In this document: positions 43,036 through 54,854 of the stretch, piece by piece
How positions within the stretch are numbered: the first letter of the stretch is position 1
Layout: every line of letters starts with the position of its first letter
Assembly: GCA_035529315.1 (NCBI GenBank)
Contig: DATKWZ010000016.1
Span: 88,464 to 152,463 of the forward strand
Reading direction: 5' to 3'
Source of the DNA: Anaerolineae bacterium
GTDB taxonomy: Bacteria; Desulfobacterota; Desulfobacteria; Desulfobacterales; ETH-SRB1
Length of the DNA: 64,000 nt
The notes under the pieces: model-generated
What the model was told of the DNA's origin: nothing
Database searches by the model: none
Seen by the model: the letters and a program-made list of their open reading frames with translations, nothing else
Position numbers and translations under genes: made by a program

Positions 43036-43113
<78 letters not shown>

Positions 43114-43220
43114 AATAAAGTCAAGGGGTTACGAACAATTAACAATCCCTTTTTAAATGGGTAAAATTCAAATTCCAACCTCATTTCCAACCTATAAAAA
43201 CAATTTGTGGGTAATCAATT

Positions 43221-44054
43221 ATGGCAACCTACAGAAGAAAAAAAGATAGTGACACATGGCATTCGCATAAGGAATGCTCTAACTGGCCCATATCGGATTA
43301 TCAAGAACCAACAAGATATTGCAAAAAGTGTAACGAGTGTGTAGCTCTGGAGAAATTTGACAAGCAAGCACAAGATTTGCATGATACATCACCGCTGAAA
43401 AACATCCCGCATTGGTATATAGACTTAAGGTTTGATAATACTTTTAACGCTGATCCTAATCATATTTTAAGTCTTGAGACATACTGGGAAACAATAAGAT
43501 CATGTTCCTATATTTCGGCAGGTTATTATCGTCCTCATGTAAACTTAACACAAGGCTCTTATAGTCACAATAAAGGAACAGACGGTAAAGGAACAAACTG
43601 GATAGATTCACAGGATAACAATGAACTCATTGAATATTGGCGATTTCACAGCAACGGTCAATTTGTGCATTTCCTTTCAATTGAGGCCGAAAAGCAAAAC
43701 CAAATTGGAATCAATTCCATTAATAATACTATCAGAGACATTTTTAACTTTGCTGGCACATTAGCACAACATCTTAATGCCACCGCCTTTATTAAAATCC
43801 GAATAGTAAATATAAAAGGGTTCGTTCTTTATCAAGACGGGGGGTTACCTGTGTTTATTAATTCTTACCCAGCCTTTGAAGATCCTTGTCTTAATCCGAT
43901 AAAGCTGGACAAGACAGCCCTAACCTCTAAAGATATGGATAAACTCGCACGGGGAGCCACAGCTTCGATTTTTAAAAGCTTTAACGTTAATAATATCACA
44001 GAAAAAACTTTAAAGAAAATACAAAAAGATTTAAGGCCCCGCCATCTTGCTTAA
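43221..44054 (+). CDS. hypothetical protein with N-terminal Cys/His-rich motif (island cargo)
   Basis: 277 aa. The N-terminus is WHSHKECSNWP...YCKKCNEC. I recognise no family for the rest. It is followed by a strong terminator. Confidence 0.6.
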   Translation: MATYRRKKDSDTWHSHKECSNWPISDYQEPTRYCKKCNECVALEKFDKQAQDLHDTSPLKNIPHWYIDLRFDNTFNADPNHILSLETYWETIRSCSYISAGYYRPHVNLTQGSYSHNKGTDGKGTNWIDSQDNNELIEYWRFHSNGQFVHFLSIEAEKQNQIGINSINNTIRDIFNFAGTLAQHLNATAFIKIRIVNIKGFVLYQDGGLPVFINSYPAFEDPCLNPIKLDKTALTSKDMDKLARGATASIFKSFNVNNITEKTLKKIQKDLRPRHLA

Positions 44055-44094
44055 GATTAACCATCTCACTTATTTTGAAGGCCAGATAATAAAA

Positions 44095-44131
44095 CCCGGG
44101 CTCCATCACTGGAATCCGGGCTTTGATTTTT
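44095..44131. terminator. bidirectional rho-independent terminator between convergent cargo genes
   Basis: aaaaCCCGGGCTCCAtcacTGGAATCCGGGctttgattttt: an 11-bp stem with one mismatch. A-run on the left and T-run on the right. Confidence 0.7.
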
Positions 44132-44152
44132 AGGCTCGCCTATTGTGATCTG

Positions 44153-44938
44153 TTATTTTTTAACCTTCCTCCTGAACCTTGAAAAACCAAACAAACCAGA
44201 ACCTACAAGAAATATTGTGGCGGGTTCGGGCACCGGAGTGCCTGCTGCTACTCTTACCAAGTCAATGGACTCAGATCCAAAATAGGAAGTACCCCAACCA
44301 CCATTATAGGCATAATGCCAGAATGATATATTAACTCCACCAATAGAAGTGATCGCTGGTAGTGTTAATAGTGATGAATTGTTCCATAAATATTCAATCG
44401 TGTTGCCTTCCTGTATAATATCTATATCTGCTGATCCTGCTTGAGGAAAATAATCACCACGTATATAAACACCTTCTCGATATCTACCACCCACAGAAAT
44501 AAGCCCTATTCCGAAATCCATAGCCCATGGATCACAATATCCTATTGCGGTTAAAAATTTGTTCTGTGTATCAAAAAGCTCTATAAAAACAGCTTGCATA
44601 GCAAGAACCGTCTCTTGCCCTTGGCTGTTTTGGGAATCCCATGAAATATTAAAATCTATATGGAAATCAGAAAGCGGGGAAAAAGTTCTTGAAAGATTTA
44701 CTATACCCCAAGGAGTAACAGGGCCAGAACTTACATCAATATCCTGGACATCTGTAACAATAAGGTTTGTGCCTGATTCACTATAATCCCAACCCGCAGC
44801 ATTCTCAAAAGAGATTGTCCAAGCTGGGCCTAAAACCCCATTATTAAAATCATCTTCAAGGATAAGAACTGCCTCCGAAGATCCCACGGAACCTATCACA
44901 ATCAATATTGCGGAAAAAAACACCCAAAATTTTTTCAT
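44153..44938 (-). CDS. PEP-CTERM-anchored secreted protein with LamG/jelly-roll-like domain
   Basis: Signal peptide MKKFWVFFSAILIVIGSVGSSEA. DDFNNGVLGPAWT. C-terminal VPEPATIFLVGSGLFGFSRFRRKVKK, which is a PEP-CTERM sorting signal. The start is moved to ATG 44938 after GGGAGGAAAcgaaca. Confidence 0.8.
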   Translation of the reverse strand: MKKFWVFFSAILIVIGSVGSSEAVLILEDDFNNGVLGPAWTISFENAAGWDYSESGTNLIVTDVQDIDVSSGPVTPWGIVNLSRTFSPLSDFHIDFNISWDSQNSQGQETVLAMQAVFIELFDTQNKFLTAIGYCDPWAMDFGIGLISVGGRYREGVYIRGDYFPQAGSADIDIIQEGNTIEYLWNNSSLLTLPAITSIGGVNISFWHYAYNGGWGTSYFGSESIDLVRVAAGTPVPEPATIFLVGSGLFGFSRFRRKVKK

Positions 44939-45007
44939 TGTTCGTTTCCTCCCATTTATATATTTCGGTACTAACAAAGGAAGTAACAAAGCAAAATCGC
45001 CTGTATT

Positions 45008-45367
45008 TTATTTTTTATACCCTTCCCGCCTCCAGTTTTTATCATAAAAGGTTTCTTTGCCATCTTGCCTTTTAATATATCCGGTTCGGTTTCCGTTTTG
45101 GTCATAAGTTGTGCCGGTGTTATTATCCCAAACAGTTTTGCCGGTTCTGTTTTGATCTTGATCGTATTTAACAACCTCGTCATCTTTATAAATGCTGTGG
45201 CCGGTTCTATTCCAGTTTTTATCAAAGTGTGTTTCTTTGCTGTCCTCAATAACTGTATAACCGGTCAAATTGTGTTGCTGGTCATATTGCCTTATTGTTT
45301 CACCTGCAAAAACACCTTCGGCACAAAAGAAAATCATTAAAATAATAAGAAATAAAAACTTTTTCAT
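45008..45367 (-). CDS. small secreted protein made of five ~20-aa YD-like repeats
   Basis: Signal peptide MKKFLFLIILMIFFCAEGVFA. It is followed by 5 repeats of the form x[YF]D[QK]xxNRTG[YHK] (YDQQHNLTGY, FDKNWNRTGH, YDQDQNRTGK, YDQNGNRTGY, YDKNWRREGY). SD cAGGAGGtcgcggc. Confidence 0.7.
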   Translation of the reverse strand: MKKFLFLIILMIFFCAEGVFAGETIRQYDQQHNLTGYTVIEDSKETHFDKNWNRTGHSIYKDDEVVKYDQDQNRTGKTVWDNNTGTTYDQNGNRTGYIKRQDGKETFYDKNWRREGYKK

Positions 45368-45393
45368 GCCGCGACCTCCTGAATTATCTTAAT

Positions 45394-45422
45394 ATTATAA
45401 TCTCATTATCAGGTAAAAGCAA
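45394..45422 (-). promoter_or_regulatory. sigma70-type promoter for the YD-like / PEP-CTERM cargo operon
   Basis: The minus strand reads TTGCTT-N17-TATAAT, ~25 nt upstream of the ATG at 45367. Confidence 0.5.
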
Positions 45423-46021
45423 TTTTTTAACCTGCTATAACTATAAAATAACCCTTTTTATCGAAAGAAAAAGATAATTTCAGCCAAAACATCAAAACCA
45501 CCTTTTCCTAAATACATTTTTTACGCCATAGATATTCTGTAATCTCAATAGGTTGGCTGAATCTGAACCCCCGATTTAACCATATTTCTGTAATAACTAT
45601 CATAATATCGGAAAAACGCCGGAAAGCCTTTATTGATAAGGGGTTACAGTAAGTTTATATTCACTTTTAAGCCTGTTTTTAGCTAAACAATAGCTGCAAT
45701 CAGTCCGATCTTATTAAAAAACAGTAGTCAGCAAGCATATAAGACTTAATGGCTTGATATTACTGAATAATAAGCTTGTTTTAGGGCTGTAATTTCCGGC
45801 ATCCCTACTAACCTTGCAGATATACTAAAACATCATAATTACAGCATGTTAAACGTGATTTTGAATTGACTACAATACAAAGCAAAGACAGCAACCGCCA
45901 GATTGACTACAAACAGAATTTTTATAAAAGAAATGGCATTAAAACAAGGGGTTGCGACAAGTCGATTTTTCAGAAATTGCCGGAATTTCGAGGGGTGCAG
46001 TATTGCAAGATGTGTGTCAAG

Positions 46022-46050
46022 TTGACAAAAATCAAAGGGGTGGGTATATT
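46022..46050 (+). promoter_or_regulatory. near-consensus sigma70 promoter firing into an ORF-less segment
   Basis: TTGACA-N17-TATATT on the plus strand. The -35 hexamer is also an iteron-like AGTTGACA. Confidence 0.45.
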
Positions 46051-47332
46051 ATATATTTATATATCAAGTAGTTATAATGTATTGTTTATTTTGTAGTCAT
46101 GGAATGCCTGAAGGTCAAGACGGGTTATAATATTTCATTAACCACCTGAACTGCTATCTATAGCAAGTATATGGTTCTTTAAGTGTAACCATAATACCCA
46201 TAAGGTTTTACCCTTGGACTCGCTCTGTCCCTGTTGTATTGATACCCTCCAGTATCAAAGCCGACCGACCATGCCTTGATATGTTTATTATCTCTGCATC
46301 CTGCCCTTGCCTGTCTGTTGCAATCATTAAGCTGTATAGCCAGGGACAGGCTGCTTATAGGCAGGCATAAAGGGTATATACCTATTGAGTTTATATATGC
46401 CTTTTGTTTATTATTGATCTTGTTATCAAGATAAAGACAGATATAATAAACCTGTTTAACCTTCTTGATCACAGATAAAAAGATCACCTATCCGGCATCT
46501 TTTTCCCAAAAAACCAAAACAGTAAAATTTATCAATTATCACCATGTTTTTACATAGCTATCAAACTAACTTATTATAATTGTTTAGTATAATAACGACA
46601 AGCCTTGTAAAGCCTTGCTATACCTATAATCCGCTGTAAAGCCTTACAATACATAGTATTACAAAGGAATGCTGAAGACAAAGACTTTATAAGGGATAGG
46701 TAGTAATATGTTTAATGATATTGACAAGTTACAAAGCAGTAAAATAAAGCATTTGCCGTCCGATAACAGCTATTATGTAAACTTTCGTAAATTGCAGGCT
46801 GCTAAACGTTGAAAATAAAGGCTTTGGGAAAGTGCTTATAATGTCCGATAAAAAAACAAATAGCCGTTTATTTTATTCAGGTCAACGAATATTATGCAAT
46901 ACAAAAAACTAAGATCACAAATATAAAATGTTTCTTTCCGGTATCACTACAAGGTTAATGACGTAAGGATAAAAAAAACTAAACACAATATATTGATATA
47001 TCTTTAAATCAGTTACTATATATTGTGTTTTTGTGTGCCAAAAGTCGCATAATTAGCTATAATTAAGTATAATTATAACTGTTATGATGGGTTTTGCCTA
47101 TCACACCCTTTCAAAGTGTTTCAAAATGAAACATAAGGTTGTATAAGATTATAAAGCAGGATTCGGGCATATTTTAAAAATATCTTCCATATCCTGGCAG
47201 GAAAATATAAATATTAATTTCGGGAGTTTTTAGCAGGAAAACATGTTAACCGCGATTTGTTTTTGTCCTTGCGGTAAAATGTTATAAAATTGATATGTTT
47301 TGCTACGAAGATTCGAATCATAAAATACAATT

Positions 47333-47525
47333 AGTTGACCAGTTGACAACCCCCAGAGGGGGGGGTTGTCAACAACTGGTTTGGAATAAAAAAGTTGACT
47401 AAAATTCTTGTTATTATTTAAAGTAAAAACAATATGTTATATAATACCAGTTGACTAAAGTTGACCAGCTTGTTGACTTGTCAACTCGGTTGACTCAGTT
47501 GACTAAAAAGTTGACTAAAATTCTT
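47333..47525. repeat. iteron cluster / putative origin of replication of the element
   Basis: Eleven GTTGAC hexamers in ~190 bp: nine direct and two inverted. A 13-bp perfect palindrome, GTTGACAACCCCC-agaggg-GGGGGTTGTCAAC, lies at 47342-47373. An exact 21-mer, aaaaagttgactaaaattctt, occurs at 47389-47409 and again at 47505-47525. Confidence 0.75.
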
Positions 47526-49410
47526 ATCCGTTTGCGGTCATAAATCCTGATTGCGTGAGTTTGTTTTTTTGACTTAGCAAACCATCTTTAATAGCCTTTT
47601 TACGGATACGGCTGATATATGCCTTGTCAATTCCTAATATATCTGTAATTTCTGTTTGTGATAATCCTTCGTCAAGCAATTTTAATATTTCGGTTTTAGT
47701 TTCCGCCTTAATATTTCCGTATGTCCAAATATGGTTTTTATTCTCGTCAAGGGTAAGTTTAAACTCTTGATCCGATAATAAATGCAAACATTTTGTATCA
47801 ACTCTATTTTTACCAAATTGCAATATAAAACGTGCCCCATCTTCAGGGACATAATTATAAGGAGCTTTCAGCATTATACTTGTGTCAAGGTTGTCCTCAC
47901 GTGCGGAAGTCCCCCTTTGCCGTCCATCTTTAGATACATGGTGCAATAAAATTGTGCTGATTCCACAAAATCTTAACTCTAAAAGCCATTGATTTATAAT
48001 ATCCCAATCCTGCTTAGCGTTTTCATCAAGACCAGGCGCTAAGCTTGCGATATTGTCAACTACCCACAATTTGACATGCCTGCTTATTAAAATTTCCTTC
48101 ATAAGGTTTCGCCAGTCAACATCAACAAGTGACGCCCTATGCAGTCCCATTGAATTTGCATAAGCATCAGAATAAAAAAGCAGTGGATTTTTACGGGCTG
48201 AATGAAGTTTTAAATTTTCGATTCGATCCCGATCGTCTCTGATTGTCATTTCACCATCCAGAAACAAGCAGGAAACTGATTTTTTGCACTCCCAAGGGCC
48301 AAAATTTGAACCTCTTGAAACTGCGTCCAGTATTCCAAGGGCAAGCCAGGTTTTGCCGCATCCCCTCCATCCTGATATAAGATTAATCGAATCTTCTTTT
48401 AACCACGGAAATAAAAGCTCCTGCTTTTCCGGCACGTCTATTTTATAAAATTCATTTGCTGATAATATTATATCATTAATAGTGATTTTTTTAGGCGGTT
48501 CATAAATTTCGGCATTTTCAATTAAAATTGAAAACCGCTCCGCTGCTTCGTCCAAGTCGTCAAAACTGTCAAGCCAGTCAGAAAAATCGCCCCCCTCAGA
48601 CAATCCAGGCAATTCCAGTAACTGAATATTCTTTGCTATGTTTTTTATATTTTGAAAAACTTTTTCAATATGCTCGCATCCGGGTTTGTCATTGTCTGGC
48701 ACCAGTATAACTTTCTTGTTTTTGAAATATTGATTTAAATCCTCAGACCAGTTCCCGGCCCCGGCAACATTGCAAGTACCTGTGAAATTCAGCCTTCCCG
48801 CATTATTGCAATCTTTTTCACCTTCAAAAACAAAGACGGTTTCTGCATCAATAACCTTTAACAGGTTGTAAGGCACTTTCGGTTTAATACCTTTAGTTGA
48901 CCATTTCAGCCCATCCGCACTGCATTGTCTGAAGGTCTTAGGCTCAAACCTACAGTTGTAATAAAGAACTTTGCCATTTGCGTTTACATAAGGATATTTT
49001 TCAATCGGAGATCCCAACTCGTAATGCTCAAACGGGTTTGTTTTCTTGTAAGTAGTTTTGACCAACTTTAAACCAGGCATGTATCTTTTAAACAGCTCCT
49101 TGATATTCGTATCTGCAAGCCAGGCATGAAAATCAACTATATCGCCCCCTTTTTCATTACATTGACGGCACCAAAATCGTTGTTGATCTGTTCTAAAAAC
49201 AAAACGATCATTTCCGCCGCATTTAGGGCAAGGCCCGCAAAGGCTGTTTTCCGATTCTTTGCGTAAGTTCTTAACAGCCTCCGGGATGCCCGGAAGCATT
49301 GATTTTAAGGCATCAATACTGCCTTTGCTGTTTTGCACAAAATTTAAAGTCTTCTCTTCCGGATTTTCGTCAAAATTAAAATTTAATTTTTTCACATTAT
49401 TTTTTTTCAT
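47524..49410 (-). CDS. bifunctional primase / replicative helicase-like ATPase (Zn-ribbon + TOPRIM + RecA-like AAA_25 + C-terminal HTH)
   Basis: Zn ribbon CPKCGGNDRFVF...WCRQC. TOPRIM VFVFEGEKD ... LVPDNDKPG. Walker A SGWRGCGKTW. Walker B KLWVVDN. C-terminal LSQTEITDILGIDKAYISRIRKKA. The start is moved to ATG 49410 after gtGGAGGttataatt. Confidence 0.88.
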   Translation of the reverse strand: MKKNNVKKLNFNFDENPEEKTLNFVQNSKGSIDALKSMLPGIPEAVKNLRKESENSLCGPCPKCGGNDRFVFRTDQQRFWCRQCNEKGGDIVDFHAWLADTNIKELFKRYMPGLKLVKTTYKKTNPFEHYELGSPIEKYPYVNANGKVLYYNCRFEPKTFRQCSADGLKWSTKGIKPKVPYNLLKVIDAETVFVFEGEKDCNNAGRLNFTGTCNVAGAGNWSEDLNQYFKNKKVILVPDNDKPGCEHIEKVFQNIKNIAKNIQLLELPGLSEGGDFSDWLDSFDDLDEAAERFSILIENAEIYEPPKKITINDIILSANEFYKIDVPEKQELLFPWLKEDSINLISGWRGCGKTWLALGILDAVSRGSNFGPWECKKSVSCLFLDGEMTIRDDRDRIENLKLHSARKNPLLFYSDAYANSMGLHRASLVDVDWRNLMKEILISRHVKLWVVDNIASLAPGLDENAKQDWDIINQWLLELRFCGISTILLHHVSKDGRQRGTSAREDNLDTSIMLKAPYNYVPEDGARFILQFGKNRVDTKCLHLLSDQEFKLTLDENKNHIWTYGNIKAETKTEILKLLDEGLSQTEITDILGIDKAYISRIRKKAIKDGLLSQKNKLTQSGFMTANG

Positions 49411-49553
49411 AATTATAACCTCCACACGGGTCAGTTTTTGGGGTGGGCGCGCAAGTGTGTGGCCTTACGTGCCCATTAACGCCGCCGGGCGAACCCCAAG
49501 AATTAATTGCTTTGCCTCCCGTGCGGGATTAGCTAAAATTCAAATCTTGAATG

Positions 49554-49922
49554 TCAATTTTTAGAAATTATTAAATCCATATTCAGCACAACCGGGGACG
49601 CATTTGCTTCTTTCGCTTTGAATTTCGCCCATACAGTGCTAATAATCGAAGCATTGAACCTGTCACGGCTTGCATTTCCGACACTTGATTTAAAAGAAGT
49701 ATGAATAGCCGTTGCATTTGCAGGAGTATAAAATGTTTCGTCAGGTGTATCGCCCACTTGATATGTCACTGCTACGTTGCCGCCGCCGGAAGCATTAAGA
49801 TCAGCAAAATATTTTGTTTTCGGCCCACATTTGCCAAGATATATTGGAGTGGCCAGAACAATACTCGCATTCTTTGCAATTGTTCTACTTGAAAATATCG
49901 TTATTTTTTCTGTAAGTCCCAT
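49554..49922 (-). CDS. hypothetical protein, 122 aa (island core)
   Basis: ORF with SD aAGGAAAGGAAAatttccatt-ATG. No family recognised. Confidence 0.55.
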   Translation of the reverse strand: MGLTEKITIFSSRTIAKNASIVLATPIYLGKCGPKTKYFADLNASGGGNVAVTYQVGDTPDETFYTPANATAIHTSFKSSVGNASRDRFNASIISTVWAKFKAKEANASPVVLNMDLIISKN

Positions 49923-50077
49923 AATGGAAATTTTCCTTTCCTTTTGTTGTTGTTGTTGTGACGAACCGAACCAGAAACAGTCCGATTCGTCACGGATGGG
50001 CGGTCATTCGGAGGTGAACCCTAATCGCCGCCCAAGGAGGGATAATAAACTGGCCGAAGTCCCATCCCACGTTCAGA

Positions 50078-50266
50078 TTATAGTCTATTTTTTAGGCGCA
50101 AAATCAGGCATTGCCCGCTCTTTGTTTCGACTTTCACCCCTGATTCAAAGGCAACAAAGTCAAGGATATCGTCCTGCAATTCAAGTTTTTCGACTAAAAG
50201 GTTGACGTCGATTTTGTAAATTCCGGCGATTTTTTCGAGCTCAAATTTGTTTAGATTATAAAGCAT
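50078..50266 (-). CDS. hypothetical small protein, 62 aa
   Basis: The track ORF starts at 50284. ATG 50266 (MLYNLNKFELEK...) is preceded by aAAGGAGAttgagt. Confidence 0.45.
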   Translation of the reverse strand: MLYNLNKFELEKIAGIYKIDVNLLVEKLELQDDILDFVAFESGVKVETKSGQCLILRLKNRL

Positions 50267-50414
50267 ACTCAATCTCCTTTGCATTTTAAAAGTGATAGGG
50301 AGAGGCCGTTGACGTATGAAAACGGCCCAGCCCTTTTAAAGGCAGCAGCTGTAACGGCTCCCACGAACAGAAACAGCTGCGCCCATTGGCGCATCCGGTA
50401 CGCCCATGCATAAC

Positions 50415-51548
50415 TTATTTGCCTTGGCCGATCATCTGGCCGATTTCATAATCGGCTTTTGATTCCTGCATTTTGGGCATTGTCAAAATCTGCCTGCGCC
50501 GTATATCGGCCAACTCCGTGACTTTGCGGCTTATGCCTTTTGCTTTTTCTTCCTGAAGCCAGTTTGAAGCTGTCTTTGCTTCCTCGCTGAAATGCAAGAG
50601 GCAAGCATCTTCAAGAGCCTTCAACTCCGGCAAATCCTTTGCTCTCTGGATATCTTCGGCAACCGCTTTTAAGCTATTCATGGCAGTAATGTTCCTTTCG
50701 GTTTTTATAGTGCCGGAATATTTGCCTTTCAGACGAGTCAACAAACTATCCCATGATTCAATCCGATCCGCCAAACCCACATCTATTGCTTGCTCCCCGA
50801 TAAAAAGACGCCCCTGACCCATTTGTTTGTCCGCAACATCGGCAGTCACGCCCCGGTTTCTTGCAATGTCCTGGATCATCAGTCCATATAAAAAATCAAG
50901 TTTGCCTTGGATATTTTTTTCATCATCTTTACTCAATGGGTTGTACTCATTGCCAACTGCTTTGAATTTGCCAGCTTTAAGCACCGTGGGTTTGAGTCCT
51001 TTTTGTTCGTATGCTGCTGAACGATCCATGTGCAGACCGATAATGCCGATACTTCCAGCTTGCGCCGATTTGTCGGAAATAATTACTTCGTGTGCTGCGG
51101 AAGCAATAAAATACGCCGCTGAAGCTGCGAGGCCATTGCAAAAAGCAATTATTCGCTTTTTAAGCCTTGATTCATAGATTAGGTTAGTGAAAACCATCAA
51201 ACCACTTACGTTGCCCCCTGGAGAATCCACATCAAGTAAAATCGTTTCAACCGCCGGATCTGCAAGAGCTTTTTGAAAATCCCTGCCCGCAATTTCGTAA
51301 CTCGTGCCACCACTTGCAGCCGCTATAATATTCATTCTTTTTGCCAACGTGCCGTAAATTTTTATAAATGCAATGCCGTTTTCGACCTTATATCTATTTT
51401 CCGCTTGGCCCGCATCTGCCAGCGATAGTTTTGCTTCTATATCCTTCAATTCGCCAAGCTGTTTAGCTTCAACCACTTGTAAAATTTCTTCCAGTTTGTC
51501 AGGGGTGATAGCCCAGGCAGAATTAATCATCAAATCATATAATTGCAT
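50415..51548 (-). CDS. S49-family serine peptidase (phage prohead/head-maturation protease type) with C-terminal extension
   Basis: VDSPGGNVSG and CNGLAASAAYFIASAA (Ser nucleophile context), followed by a ~100-aa helical tail. SD tAGGAGGttttaaaaatt. Same family as SppA and the lambda gpC-type proteases. Confidence 0.8.
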   Translation of the reverse strand: MQLYDLMINSAWAITPDKLEEILQVVEAKQLGELKDIEAKLSLADAGQAENRYKVENGIAFIKIYGTLAKRMNIIAAASGGTSYEIAGRDFQKALADPAVETILLDVDSPGGNVSGLMVFTNLIYESRLKKRIIAFCNGLAASAAYFIASAAHEVIISDKSAQAGSIGIIGLHMDRSAAYEQKGLKPTVLKAGKFKAVGNEYNPLSKDDEKNIQGKLDFLYGLMIQDIARNRGVTADVADKQMGQGRLFIGEQAIDVGLADRIESWDSLLTRLKGKYSGTIKTERNITAMNSLKAVAEDIQRAKDLPELKALEDACLLHFSEEAKTASNWLQEEKAKGISRKVTELADIRRRQILTMPKMQESKADYEIGQMIGQGK

Positions 51549-51563
51549 AATTTTTAAAACCTC

Positions 51564-52043
51564 CTAAATAAAATATATTTCAGCCGAAGCCTTTAACGGC
51601 AGGCGTTCGCAAAGTTCTTTGTCTTCTCCTATTAAGGCCGTCCATTGTTTATTAAGATTTTCCCTCATCGCTATAAGCCCTTCGCGGTCTTTTATTGCTT
51701 TTAAAACCCTTTCGACCGCCCGTGCCTTTCTGTCTTCAAAGTTTTTTGCCTCTTTCTGAAGTTGGTAAAAATCCAAAACACAATTTAAAACGGATATTTG
51801 CCGTTCCAAGTCTTTCAATTGTGTTTCAATCTCAATTTTCTCATTCTCCAATTTTTCAATTTTCTTCTGTAATTTTTCAACCTGCAATTTATTATAATCG
51901 AAACTTAAGCGGATATTTTTATATTCCGATTCATCCGAAGCCGCCTCAAGCTTAACCTCAAGCGCATTTACTTCCGTTTGGAATACTTCCAGTTCAGCCG
52001 TAAGCTTTTGGATCTGTTTTTCAATAGGTATGTTATCCTTCAT
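51564..52043 (-). CDS. coiled-coil protein, 159 aa
   Basis: Heptad-rich sequence (LTAELEVFQTEVNALEVKLEAA..., KLQKKIEKLENEKIEIETQLKDLERQISVL). Confidence 0.6.
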   Translation of the reverse strand: MKDNIPIEKQIQKLTAELEVFQTEVNALEVKLEAASDESEYKNIRLSFDYNKLQVEKLQKKIEKLENEKIEIETQLKDLERQISVLNCVLDFYQLQKEAKNFEDRKARAVERVLKAIKDREGLIAMRENLNKQWTALIGEDKELCERLPLKASAEIYFI

Positions 52044-52061
52044 AATTTTTTCTCAAACCCC

Positions 52062-52643
52062 CTATTCATTTATTTTTTTCAAAAGAGCAACTTTTTTCTC
52101 GACCAGTCTATCCTTACTGTCCTGTGCGTCTTCAAAGGAAAGAGAACACCAAGTTTTTAAATCGCCTTTATCGAAAGGCTTTCCCGGCCTTTTTAATTTC
52201 TGAGATTGTGCAAGCTGCTGATCTGCCCGCATTTCTGAAAGATTTTTCTCCAAAGTTCTTAAGGCATCTTCTCGAAGTTTTAAAAAATCCTCTTCGGTTT
52301 TTACAGCCACCACTGCCGCCTCAAGGCGTTTCTCGTGGATTTTGCAAACCGCATCATAGCAATCTTGCAAAAATTTGTGAAAGCTGCTGTCCGAACTTCG
52401 GGAAGCAAGCAAATTCATTCTTTCAAGATTGAGACTATAAATTTCAATAAAAAATTTACCCTCATCAATACCGCACCGGCCAGACTCGCGGTTGTCATAG
52501 AAAATATGCTGGCATGTGTCGGCTAATTTTTTTTCGCAGTAATATTTATTATGTTTAGACAATTTCACACCTGGCAGCCCCTTTTGCCGCCGTGCTTCGG
52601 CCTGTTCTTCTTCCGTCAAAACTCTTATATTAGGCTCATACAT
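52062..52643 (-). CDS. hypothetical protein, 193 aa
   Basis: Its start overlaps the upstream gene stop (TAATG coupling). No family recognised. Confidence 0.55.
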   Translation of the reverse strand: MYEPNIRVLTEEEQAEARRQKGLPGVKLSKHNKYYCEKKLADTCQHIFYDNRESGRCGIDEGKFFIEIYSLNLERMNLLASRSSDSSFHKFLQDCYDAVCKIHEKRLEAAVVAVKTEEDFLKLREDALRTLEKNLSEMRADQQLAQSQKLKRPGKPFDKGDLKTWCSLSFEDAQDSKDRLVEKKVALLKKINE

Positions 52644-52879
52644 TATAAAACTCCCTTCAAAATTTCATTAATATCAACATTTTTGTATCCTGTCTTTTTT
52701 AAGCTTTTTATCGTCAAGAGCCGCTCAATGGTTGTTTCCGGCCAGTAATTACTTGCGCCATATCGGCCAAAAGACTTAAACTGTGGCACTGGTAGCCAGC
52801 CAGCCTTGACATATCGGGAAATGGTTTTACTGCTCAATCCCGTCATCTGCATCAATTTTTTTGTTCTTAATATCTTCAT
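52643..52879 (-). CDS. MerR/excisionase-like HTH protein, 78 aa
   Basis: LRTKKLMQMTGLSSKTISRYVKAGWLP is an HTH pattern. Confidence 0.6.
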   Translation of the reverse strand: MKILRTKKLMQMTGLSSKTISRYVKAGWLPVPQFKSFGRYGASNYWPETTIERLLTIKSLKKTGYKNVDINEILKGVL

Positions 52880-52928
52880 TTAAAAGTCCAAGTGTAGAAG
52901 TCAAAAGGTCAAATTTTTTTGCCTCTGC

Positions 52929-53120
52929 CTACAGCGCACCGGTTTCGATCTTGTGTGCTTCCATCCAATCAAGAACATCCTGCAATAGATATCTGACTGA
53001 CCGCCCCATCTTCACGTAAGGGAAGCCCCTGCCGCAATGTCTATCGTTGCGCAAGGTTTGCAAGGCACGGCATGTTATTTCGCAGACTTGTTTTTCGTTA
53101 ATATACTTTTTCATAGACAT
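52929..53120 (-). CDS. AlpA-family excisionase / transcriptional regulator
   Basis: YINEKQVCEITCRALQTLRNDRHCGRGFPYVKMGRSVRYLLQDVLDWM is the pattern of phage AlpA/Xis (HTH_17) proteins. It is adjacent to the integrase. Confidence 0.7.
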   Translation of the reverse strand: MSMKKYINEKQVCEITCRALQTLRNDRHCGRGFPYVKMGRSVRYLLQDVLDWMEAHKIETGAL

Positions 53121-53382
53121 TCACCCCATCAAATTTGTTTTCTTTTCTCCCAAAATGATGAAAACAAATGATTGTTTCAATCTTTTTTTGAAGATCACTG
53201 TTTTACTTTGCAATATTTTGGCAGTTGAAAACCTATAAGGCTAATAATATCAAGCAGATAATAGAAATTGAAATAATATAGGGTAAAGCAAAGGAAAAAG
53301 AAGTATGGTATTTTGTCTAAATTAAGGACTGGGGTGTGGTATTTACTAAAAAAATAAGGGGGGAATTTACTTCTTTAAAGGT

Positions 53383-54525
53383 TCACGGTCTTCCGATTTT
53401 GGATATATTTTTTACAGCATCGGCAACGATATTACCGGCCAGATTTGAAGCTGCCACAAGTGTTTCGTCTTGCAGGTGTGCATATCTCTGTGTCATTGCA
53501 GGGCCTTTGTGGGTTAGCAGTTTCTGGAGGGTGTACATATCGACCTTGCCTGAACTGGCAAGCATTGACGCAAAGACATGGCGAAGGCCGTGCAAGGGCC
53601 GGAACTTTGCAGGCAATCCAGCTTTTCTTTTTATCTTATTTATGGGTTTTGAAATATTTACTAACTGCTTGCCCTCACGTCCCGGAAATATAAAAGGGCT
53701 TTCCGTTCGTGGGTGATTTTTAAGCAGTTCTCTTGCGGCATCGTTCAGGGGGATTACTTGATCAGTGCCGCCCTTGGGATCTACAATATTTATAAATCCA
53801 CGGTCAAAATTAACGTGTTCCCATTTCAGTTTCAGCATTTCGGATCTTCTCATTCCAGAAAATAGCGCAAGTTTCATTATAGGCCCAGCTTGCGGGTGTA
53901 TGTCGTTATCAATGGCCTTCAATAAGTCTTTTATTTGTTCAGATGTTAAATCTTCAGTAACCAGGTTTGAGACTGTAGGTTTTTTGATACGGAAGGGAAG
54001 CCCAGGACATAAACCTTTTTTAATACCAAAGTTTGCGATCCAGGTGAGAAGGTTAAGAACATGTTTTACGGTTTGCGGTGATTTCTCTTTTAAAAGCTTT
54101 ATTCTAAGCCGGTCAATATCCAAGGCTAAAATATTTTTAGGTTCGGTATCACCAAAAGGGGCTTTCAAATACTTTTCATATCGGCCTAAATCAGTTTTAA
54201 GACTTTTGCCAGGTGTCCTGCCTTTGATATATTCATCAAAAAGCCTTTGGATTGTCAACTTGTCGGCCTCAGCCTCTTTGAGGGCATGCTCTTGTTTACG
54301 TTTCGCCTTTCGGGTTAATCTTTTGCCTTCGATTAATTCTGACCGTATATGTGCCGCCCTGGCCGGGGTCATGTCATCAGCATATTGACGCCCTGCTTTT
54401 TCTTCAAAAAGTTTGCCTTCCTTTTTATAGACAACATAAAAAACTTTTTCGCTCCCTTTGCCACCGATTCTTTTTGATTCCCGAAAAAATACCCCAGGAT
54501 ATGTTGTTTTTTTTCGCTTTGACAT
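53383..54525 (-). CDS. tyrosine-type site-specific integrase
   Basis: Catalytic residues in context: LFSGMRRSE (Arg), HGLRHVFAS (His-x-x-Arg) and TQRYAH (Tyr). N-terminal SAM-like domain. It lies ~280 bp inside attR. Confidence 0.93.
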   Translation of the reverse strand: MSKRKKTTYPGVFFRESKRIGGKGSEKVFYVVYKKEGKLFEEKAGRQYADDMTPARAAHIRSELIEGKRLTRKAKRKQEHALKEAEADKLTIQRLFDEYIKGRTPGKSLKTDLGRYEKYLKAPFGDTEPKNILALDIDRLRIKLLKEKSPQTVKHVLNLLTWIANFGIKKGLCPGLPFRIKKPTVSNLVTEDLTSEQIKDLLKAIDNDIHPQAGPIMKLALFSGMRRSEMLKLKWEHVNFDRGFINIVDPKGGTDQVIPLNDAARELLKNHPRTESPFIFPGREGKQLVNISKPINKIKRKAGLPAKFRPLHGLRHVFASMLASSGKVDMYTLQKLLTHKGPAMTQRYAHLQDETLVAASNLAGNIVADAVKNISKIGRP

Positions 54526-54804
54526 AAAACCTCCAATATTGTATTAATTGGATTATAATTTTAGCCGGAAACCTGTTTAACCCTCTGTGTTTACATGATA
54601 AATATTTCTTTGGTTTCCGGCTTGCAAGTCCCAAAGTTGGAAAAAGGCGGGAATTACTTTCCAACCCTATTTCCAACCTTTTTTCTATATATCAGAGTAA
54701 AAAAAAGTAAGTCAAGAAAAAAAGAAAAAAATAAATACTGTGATATTAATATGATATTAAGGGGGTTTAGTAAAAGAAGGTAAAAAGAGGTAAATTTAAG
54801 CTTA

Positions 54805-54854
54805 CGGCCTGTCAAGCCGGAGGTCGCGAGTTCAAGTCTCGTCACTCCCGCCAT
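54805..54854 (+). repeat. attR core (orphan copy of the tRNA-Asp 3' part)
   Basis: Identical to 43064-43113. The sequence in front (aaatttaagctta) has no tRNA 5' half. Confidence 0.92.

Follow-up and report, generated by a model that had tools for sequence, protein, structure and literature searches.

A putative iteron replication origin directly downstream of a primase-helicase gene in a small integrative element of the Desulfobacterales

Introduction

What does a dense field of short repeats do when it lies directly at the end of a primase-helicase gene, and which protein reads it? The question is raised by positions 47334-47515 of a 64-kb stretch of DNA from the Desulfobacterales (the window; window coordinates are used throughout). 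A first-pass annotation, made from the letters of the sequence, had noted a field of GTTGAC hexamers there, proposed a second and weaker cluster 1.4 kb away, likened the arrangement to the bipartite ori/crr design of P4, and named the C-terminal HTH of the primase as the candidate binder.

The field is here read as the probable vegetative replication origin of an 11.75-kb integrative, satellite-like element (43064-54854) in a tRNA-Asp gene. That it is an iteron array tied to the primase-helicase is supported by comparison of sequences across many homologous loci. We infer the steps of binding, melting, self-loading and replication, and they are worded conditionally below.

Origins of comparable layout have been located by experiment in SaPI and Gram-negative PICI elements, where the iterons lie immediately 3' of rep and two sets of them flank an AT-rich region (PMC9371898, PMC6092414). 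These iterons are 6-12 penta- or hexanucleotides in opposed orientations on both sides of the AT-rich core (PMC9371898). Their binding partner is a self-loading initiator-helicase, which recognises them with its C-terminal winged helix (PMC9371898, PMC6092414).

Genome features

The element is bounded by exact 50-bp repeats, the left one forming part of the tRNA-Asp gene (Table 1). Two homologous elements, L081 and L083, have identical 50-bp flanks and occupy the same tRNA-Asp site. The primase-helicase is the sole replication gene of the element, and no separate non-helicase initiator of the Rep_3 or WH1-WH2 type is found among its ORFs. Literature searches returned no description of this element family.

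Assembly contigs of three soil metagenomes (X1, X2 and X3) break at 43084 and 54834. Read depth over the element is ~44 in X1 and X3 compared with ~85-92 for the flanking chromosome, about half, and in X2 it is ~0.9 times the flank depth. Because depth is halved and contigs are broken at the attachment repeats, the element is a discrete unit carried by part of the population only. This partial carriage points to recent mobility. Depth in the three soil metagenomes gives no sign of over-replication of the element; values at or below the chromosome's fit a quiescent element and say nothing for the activity of the origin. The attachment repeat exceeds the assembler's word in length, which puts the circular junction beyond the resolution of the contigs. 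One joint in X2, from 54841 to 43041 (depth 2.9), was rejected as such a junction, as it looks like tandem tRNA-Asp genes of another genome.

The field holds 11 exact GTTGAC hexamers, nine on the forward strand and two inverted. Exact counting and shuffling confirm the number given in the first-pass annotation, and its coordinates stand for every copy but the first, which starts at 47334 and not at 47335. Over the whole window GTTGAC occurs 39 times, compared with 17.9 +/- 4.5 in dinucleotide shuffles, and 0 of 100 shuffles reached 39. Within the 182 bp of the field, the 11 copies compare with 0.08 expected from the rate outside it (Poisson P(>=11) ~2e-20).

The hexamers are arranged in two arms, with seven and four copies on either side of a 50-bp spacer of 86% A+T, and each arm includes one inverted copy. 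Only 9 nt separate the stop codon of the 633-aa primase-helicase from the end of the first hexamer. The 13-bp palindrome described earlier is borne out, with perfect arms of 13 nt (47342-47354 and 47361-47373) around a 6-nt loop. So is the exact 21-mer AAAAAGTTGACTAAAATTCTT, which occurs first at 47389-47409 and again, as had been noticed, over the stop codon of the primase-helicase.

Table 1. Positions of the iteron field, the element and related sites (window coordinates unless a homologous locus is named)
Feature	Position	Strand	Remark
Direct GTTGAC copies (starts)	47334, 47342, 47394, 47450, 47460, 47472, 47489, 47498, 47510	+	
Inverted GTTGAC copies	47368-47373, 47480-47485	-	
Putative origin arm 1, gene-proximal	47450..47515		7 GTTGAC: 6 in one orientation, 1 inverted at 47480; start-to-start 8-12 bp
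A+T-rich spacer, 50 bp, 86% A+T	47400..47449		Presumed DNA melting site
Putative origin arm 2, distal arm	47334..47399		Iteron at 47394; inverted pair 47368/47342 forming the palindrome; last iteron at 47334
Palindrome GTTGACAACCCCC / GGGGGTTGTCAAC	47342..47373		6-nt loop; G/C hairpin between two inverted iterons
21-mer AAAAAGTTGACTAAAATTCTT, second copy	47505..47525	+	Exact; 2-nt overlap with stop codon (47524-47526, - strand)
Primase-helicase-wHTH gene, 633 aa	47524..49425	-	Zinc finger and Toprim primase, RecA-type AAA_25 helicase, C-terminal winged HTH
Recognition-helix codons, residues 600-613 (DKAYISRIRKKAIK)	47587..47628	-	Predicted helix; holds ranks 1-3 of the co-variation
First-pass distal cluster	45865..46028	+	ATTGACTA at 45865 and 45902; GTTGACAA at 46021; judged to lie outside the origin
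Left attachment repeat, 50 bp	43064..43113	+	3' part of tRNA-Asp (43036-43112); exact repeat of 54805-54854
Right attachment repeat, 50 bp	54805..54854	+	Exact copy of left repeat; contig break at 54834
Tyrosine integrase	53383..54525	-	Pfam Phage_integrase 5e-29; phrog_1 integrase 2e-58
S49 head-maturation-protease homologue	50415-51548		Inside element
~50-nt motif in homologous elements	L001:5958-6010, L002:5884-5936, L005:4644-4692, L006:5281-5333		
~50-nt motif in homologous elements, continued	L007:2465-2517, L008:5984-6038, L012:5923-5974, L003:5040-5105		

The 633-aa protein matches Pfam AAA_25 (2.9e-25), with weak matches to Toprim_2 and, at its C terminus, to HTH_23, and it falls in PHROGs family phrog_239 (DNA primase/helicase). 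The primase zinc finger zf-CHC2 (PF01807) is present in its homologues. A profile of the family matched the DnaG zinc-binding domains 1d0q and 2au3 in the PDB at 1e-8; otherwise the same search gave only weak RadA and HTH matches, and the single 633-aa sequence gave no PDB match. Phage and plasmid collections hold no close annotated relative, the best match being 26% identical and labelled 'primase DnaG/twinkle'.

An AlphaFold model of the protein (mean pLDDT 79.8) was matched by Foldseek to full-length T7 gp4 (6n9w, 5ikn and 1q57, E ~3e-9) and to Twinkle (8e2l, 8e-7). Further fold matches are to DnaG, RSF1010 RepA, RadA and KaiC. The helicase matches are all RecA-type, and RSF1010 RepA aligns to the helicase domain with a TM-score of ~0.6 normalised to the target. 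Because of the Pfam AAA_25, PHROG, zinc-finger and predicted fold matches, the protein is assigned as a gp4/Twinkle-type SF4 primase-helicase with an extra C-terminal domain.

The extra domain, of ~70 residues, is predicted to fold into three helices plus a small hairpin; helix 3 spans residues 601-613 (pLDDT ~90). Modelled alone (pLDDT 82.6), it resembles the winged HTH of MarR/DtxR with query-normalised TM-scores of 0.6-0.7. The P4 origin-binding domain, 1ka8, is absent from the top 50 fold matches of this domain.

Comparative analysis

The primase-helicase family comprises 926 matches, mostly in MAGs of the Desulfobacterales and other Thermodesulfobacteriota. A scan of genome contigs with the single window protein found no close relatives; relatives were recovered by an alignment-based scan of genome contigs, and 80 genome loci were fetched. 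Each locus of ~9 kb was searched without bias for the densest cluster of any one hexamer, gene position being ignored.

Of the 38 genome loci at >=40% identity, 34 have their densest hexamer window <=150 bp from the primase stop. The copy number in these windows is 6-13, with >=7 in 32 of them, compared with at most 4-6 elsewhere in the loci. An independent set from IMG/VR and metagenomes places the densest cluster at the primase stop in 86 of 102 loci, and many of the more distant relatives of Desulfovibrio type likewise have a cluster there. No hexamer cluster was found at the stop in L031, L037, L038 and L041, whose primases are 41-47% identical. Their origins may have been lost, may have moved, or may consist of repeats missed by the scan.

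Homologous elements without any repeats beside the primase gene had been named at the outset as what would count against the proposal; repeats are present there in the 34 and the 86 loci just given. Position and architecture are kept across ~120 loci, but the hexamer itself varies by element and may be GTTGAC, GTTTCC, GTTCAC, GTTTAG, GTTTAC, GTTGCC, GTTAGC, GTTAAC or others. On the sense strand of the gene, its general form is NNNAAC.

The common layout begins at the stop codon with an arm of 4-8 mostly direct iterons, followed by the A+T-rich spacer. In most homologous fields the distal arm then runs in the order iteron, inverted iteron, C-run, loop, G-run, iteron, iteron. Spacers of 49-51 bp occur in 20 of 35 loci (window included) and of 35-39 bp in 11 of 35; in most of the 35 the spacer has an A+T content above that of its own locus. 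Every hexamer is invariant in the six fields of GTTGAC type; spacer and linkers diverge among them, and spacer length is kept.

Hairpins of the iteron-C-run/G-run-iteron kind, equivalent to the palindrome, occur in homologues with other hexamers. A perfect-arm hairpin finder missed most of the imperfect C-run/G-run hairpins, and those were checked by eye. The whole module of arms, spacer and hairpin has reversed orientation with respect to the primase gene in L010, L035, L045, L029, L008 and L039, and the putative origin therefore behaves as a self-contained cassette.

Co-variation between protein and repeat was assessed over 347 aligned columns (residues ~290-633) in 35 proteins, using permutation z-scores for iteron class. 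Raw mutual information was set aside, being dominated by high-entropy columns. The top columns are 606 (z 7.2), 603 (5.8) and 600 (5.5), and 602 ranks sixth. All four fall on one face of helix 3 in the C-terminal HTH, at its beginning. In place of an explicit phylogenetic model, the control was internal, through the ranking of columns that share one phylogeny, and was joined by prediction on held-out loci. Nearest-neighbour prediction of the iteron for 51 held-out loci was accurate at 0.68 with residues 600-607, compared with 0.20-0.49 for six other 8-residue segments of the C-terminal domain.

Single residues follow the repeat in the same way among 86 loci. Arginine at 606 goes with GT[C/A]AAC in 27 of 27 loci, glutamine (Q606) with CTAAAC in 18 of 22, and lysine (K606) with GGNAAC, GTGAAC or GTTAAC in 27 of 34. 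All 10 loci with D600 have GTCAAC, and they make up 10 of the 14 GTCAAC loci.

Because the position of the field is conserved while the hexamer tracks the recognition helix, the C-terminal winged HTH of the primase-helicase is the likely binder of the hexamer. The suggestion to this effect in the first-pass annotation thus gains support from columns 606, 603 and 600 and from the held-out prediction.

The same co-variation would apply to an array that is bound by the C-terminal domain of the primase-helicase and yet is not an origin. Such an array would serve copy-number control or handcuffing, titration, incompatibility, partition or downstream regulation, with initiation elsewhere, and iteron arrays of plasmids can have control functions (PMC4980987). 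This is judged improbable. A fixed-length A+T-rich spacer between oppositely oriented sites is the geometry of a melting site, these loci have no other repeat cluster to be the true origin, and the tested PICI counterparts use this layout as origin (PMC6092414).

Less probable still is a packaging signal (pac/cos-like) or a site for some other DNA-binding protein that the element or a helper phage encodes, the primase-helicase then having no part in its recognition. The head-maturation-protease homologue makes an interaction with capsid assembly plausible, and the binding sites of small terminase subunits can be repeat arrays. However, the co-variation of the hexamer is specific to the primase-helicase's recognition helix, the field stays at the primase stop across very diverged elements, and no terminase gene was found in the element with Pfam or PHROGs.

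Hardly any likelihood attaches to a reading of the field as clustered promoter -35 boxes (TTGACA/TTGACT), as the terminator of the primase operon or as a chance low-complexity repeat: GTTGAC does include TTGAC, the sigma-70 -35 core, one 9/12 promoter-like match runs from 47395, and the field lies at a gene end and has a G/C hairpin, but comparative data rule out the promoter cluster through homologous fields with the same architecture and hexamers unlike a -35 box (GTTTCC, GTTCAC, GTTTAG), the palindrome lacks a following T-run and does not score as an intrinsic terminator, some relatives such as L010, L035 and L045 carry the whole field in the reverse orientation to the gene, and the hexamer statistics exclude chance.

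Relation to other replicons

Read as a replication origin, the field has a closer design analogue in the PICI/SaPI origin than in P4. As in SaPI1, SaPIbov1, SaPI5 PriRep and E. coli EcCICFT073, it lies directly 3' of the gene for an initiator-helicase, which is a presumed one here. It likewise consists of short iterons (11 exact hexamers here, 6-13 in relatives), in sets around an AT-rich core, with both orientations present on either side. In both cases each element has iterons of its own, and the carrier is a small integrase-bearing island. A C-terminal winged helix serves the iterons in PICI/SaPI; its counterpart here is indicated by the predicted fold (pLDDT ~90) and by co-variation. In PICI/SaPI the pri-rep-ori segment also drives autonomous replication; for the present element, metagenome depth shows no over-replication.

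The two differ in their enzymes, since the protein described here combines a RecA-type SF4 helicase with a DnaG-type primase, whereas SaPI Reps are SF3/MCM-like AAA+ proteins (PMC9371898). The host lineage is also different, here Desulfobacterales/Thermodesulfobacteriota. Moreover, the present family adds a conserved palindrome of iteron, G/C hairpin and iteron, and a spacer kept at ~50 or ~37 bp.

P4 resembles the element in being a small integrative satellite-like unit, and its alpha protein also joins a DnaG-type primase, a hexameric helicase and a C-terminal winged helix in one polypeptide (PMC2777425). The helicase of alpha belongs to SF3 (PMC2777425), however, and that of the present protein is RecA-type SF4.

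The proposed likeness to the bipartite P4 design depended on the distal cluster. Its sites exist as written, but GTTGAC is exact in just one of them, a number equal to the background density of the window, and the degenerate pattern was fitted after the fact. Among 34 homologous loci, no second cluster of the locus-specific hexamer was found; outside the field this hexamer peaks at 1-2 copies per 300 bp, or 3 in one locus. L081 and L083, both users of GTTGAC, share the block 45892-46104 at 72-74% identity and do not keep the distal sites, having TTGCCA/TTGTCA and ACTGACTA instead. One ATTGACTA falls in a window-specific insertion of ~26 nt. The copy at 46021, the exact GTTGAC, supplies the -35 element of an 11/12 sigma-70-like match, TTGACA-17-TATATT, at 46022-46050 (+).

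For its degeneracy, its lack of conservation and the promoter-like match, the distal cluster is rejected as an analogue of crr. P4 reportedly depends on crr, a second site with iterons kilobases away from ori, a requirement attributed to Ziegelin and Lanka in 1995. The analogy to ori/crr is unsupported because the present loci have no conserved second site. For P4 replication, Ziegelin and Lanka 1995 is cited by PMC6092414 and PMC7145576.

T7 gp4 and Twinkle share with the 633-aa protein a zinc finger, a Toprim primase and a RecA-type helicase in the same order and with the same folds. The difference lies in the extra 70-residue winged HTH and in the iteron field after the gene. T7 gp4 is not known to have a sequence-specific double-stranded DNA-binding domain or to recognise an iteron origin.

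Iteron plasmids encode their initiator as a separate protein, and their iterons are ~17-22 bp long. RSF1010 divides the work among the RepC initiator, RepA helicase and RepB' primase, and the helicase domain of the present protein is like RepA. Here, in contrast, the iterons are hexamers, and the presumed initiator, helicase and primase form one chain. Common to both are direct repeats beside an A+T-rich unwinding region (PMC4980987).

A PICI/SaPI-like mode of action is proposed because the layout matches origins shown by experiment. One 633-aa chain would carry a DnaG-type primase, a RecA-type SF4 hexameric helicase and a C-terminal winged HTH. The winged HTH would read GTTGAC with residues 600-607, at the N-terminal end of its recognition helix, and the protein would assemble on the two arms, with their seven and four sites at a spacing of about one helical turn. 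The 50-bp, 86% A+T spacer between the arms would then melt, the helicase would load itself, and the primase domain would make the first primers. The palindrome of iteron, G/C hairpin and iteron in the distal arm probably helps assembly or priming.

That an SF4 enzyme may act as its own self-loading initiator is suggested because SF3 systems offer an analogy. A self-loading initiator-helicase has so far been characterised only for SF3 or MCM-type enzymes. To our knowledge, no characterised SF4 helicase serves as its own origin-binding initiator.

A wider proposition is evenly balanced in our judgement. It holds that the protein represents T7-gp4-like SF4 primase-helicases that acquired an origin-recognition domain and replicate a large, undescribed family of small integrative elements mainly of Desulfobacterales and other Thermodesulfobacteriota, that these enzymes are self-loading initiator-helicases, and that residues 600, 603 and 606 read the three variable bases of NNNAAC by a simple code. 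If true, the recognition-helix code would explain how related elements avoid cross-talk between their origins. The PICI-style origin design would extend to another helicase superfamily and phylum, and its spread could reflect convergence or modular exchange of origin-binding domains.

The ~120 natural protein/site pairs, with one architecture and >=10 hexamers, offer a natural experiment in DNA recognition. The analysis also clearly delimits a mobile element of an uncultured, little-studied lineage and gives it a precise candidate origin. The compact cassette of primase-helicase and putative origin could seed replicons for Desulfobacterota, which lack genetic tools.

Additional observations

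Eight homologous elements have a motif of ~50 nt located ~210-260 nt past the primase stop, beyond the iteron field (Table 1). It consists of GGTGTG, a stem of 5-6 bp, a loop ACCGAGYCC, the return stem and then GCGGGTGGATGGTGGGYAAAA. In the RNAalifold prediction, 6 of the 10 pairs show compensatory changes. The motif has no Rfam match and does not occur in the window. It may represent a structured RNA or else a signal in single-stranded DNA.

Rfam searches of the window and element detected tRNAs only, plus one sub-threshold tmRNA-like match at the attachment site. The int-alpA RNA (RF02996) was found above threshold, at 40.4 bits, in L006:2420-2491, a locus with GTTGAC iterons and a primase 72% identical; it has no Rfam match in the window's element.

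The ~1.9 kb between the putative origin and the next clear gene (45400-47330) are ORF-poor, with 33% G+C. The region has 24 sigma-70-like matches compared with 12 in shuffles, and blocks 46404-46930, 45892-46104 and 45485-45680 are 71-76% conserved in L081 or L083. Non-coding RNA or small genes may be encoded there. At its cargo end the element has genes for a PEP-CTERM-anchored protein (Pfam 3e-7), at 44153-44989 (-), and for a 277-aa protein without any family match, at 43221-44054 (+).

L081 and L083 are complete sister elements. Their genes encode, in order, the integrase, a 66-aa protein, a MerR-like protein, a 363-aa coiled-coil protein just upstream of the S49 protease, the protease itself, proteins of 64, 121 and 66 aa, and the primase-helicase, followed by the putative origin and variable cargo. 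The cargo of L081 includes a serine recombinase. In the window, the counterpart of the 363-aa coiled-coil protein (51564-52643, -) is broken by two in-frame stops (NE*GV*EK) into ORFs of 193 and 159 aa and is either a split gene or a pseudogene. The coiled-coil protein matches no Pfam or PHROG family.

Homologues in L084-L092 lie on IMG/VR contigs of 5-14 kb (e.g., 12,730, 10,444, 13,858 and 11,795 bp). Contigs of element size in this collection, though no proof of encapsidation, are compatible with small elements that were classed as viral or are packaged.
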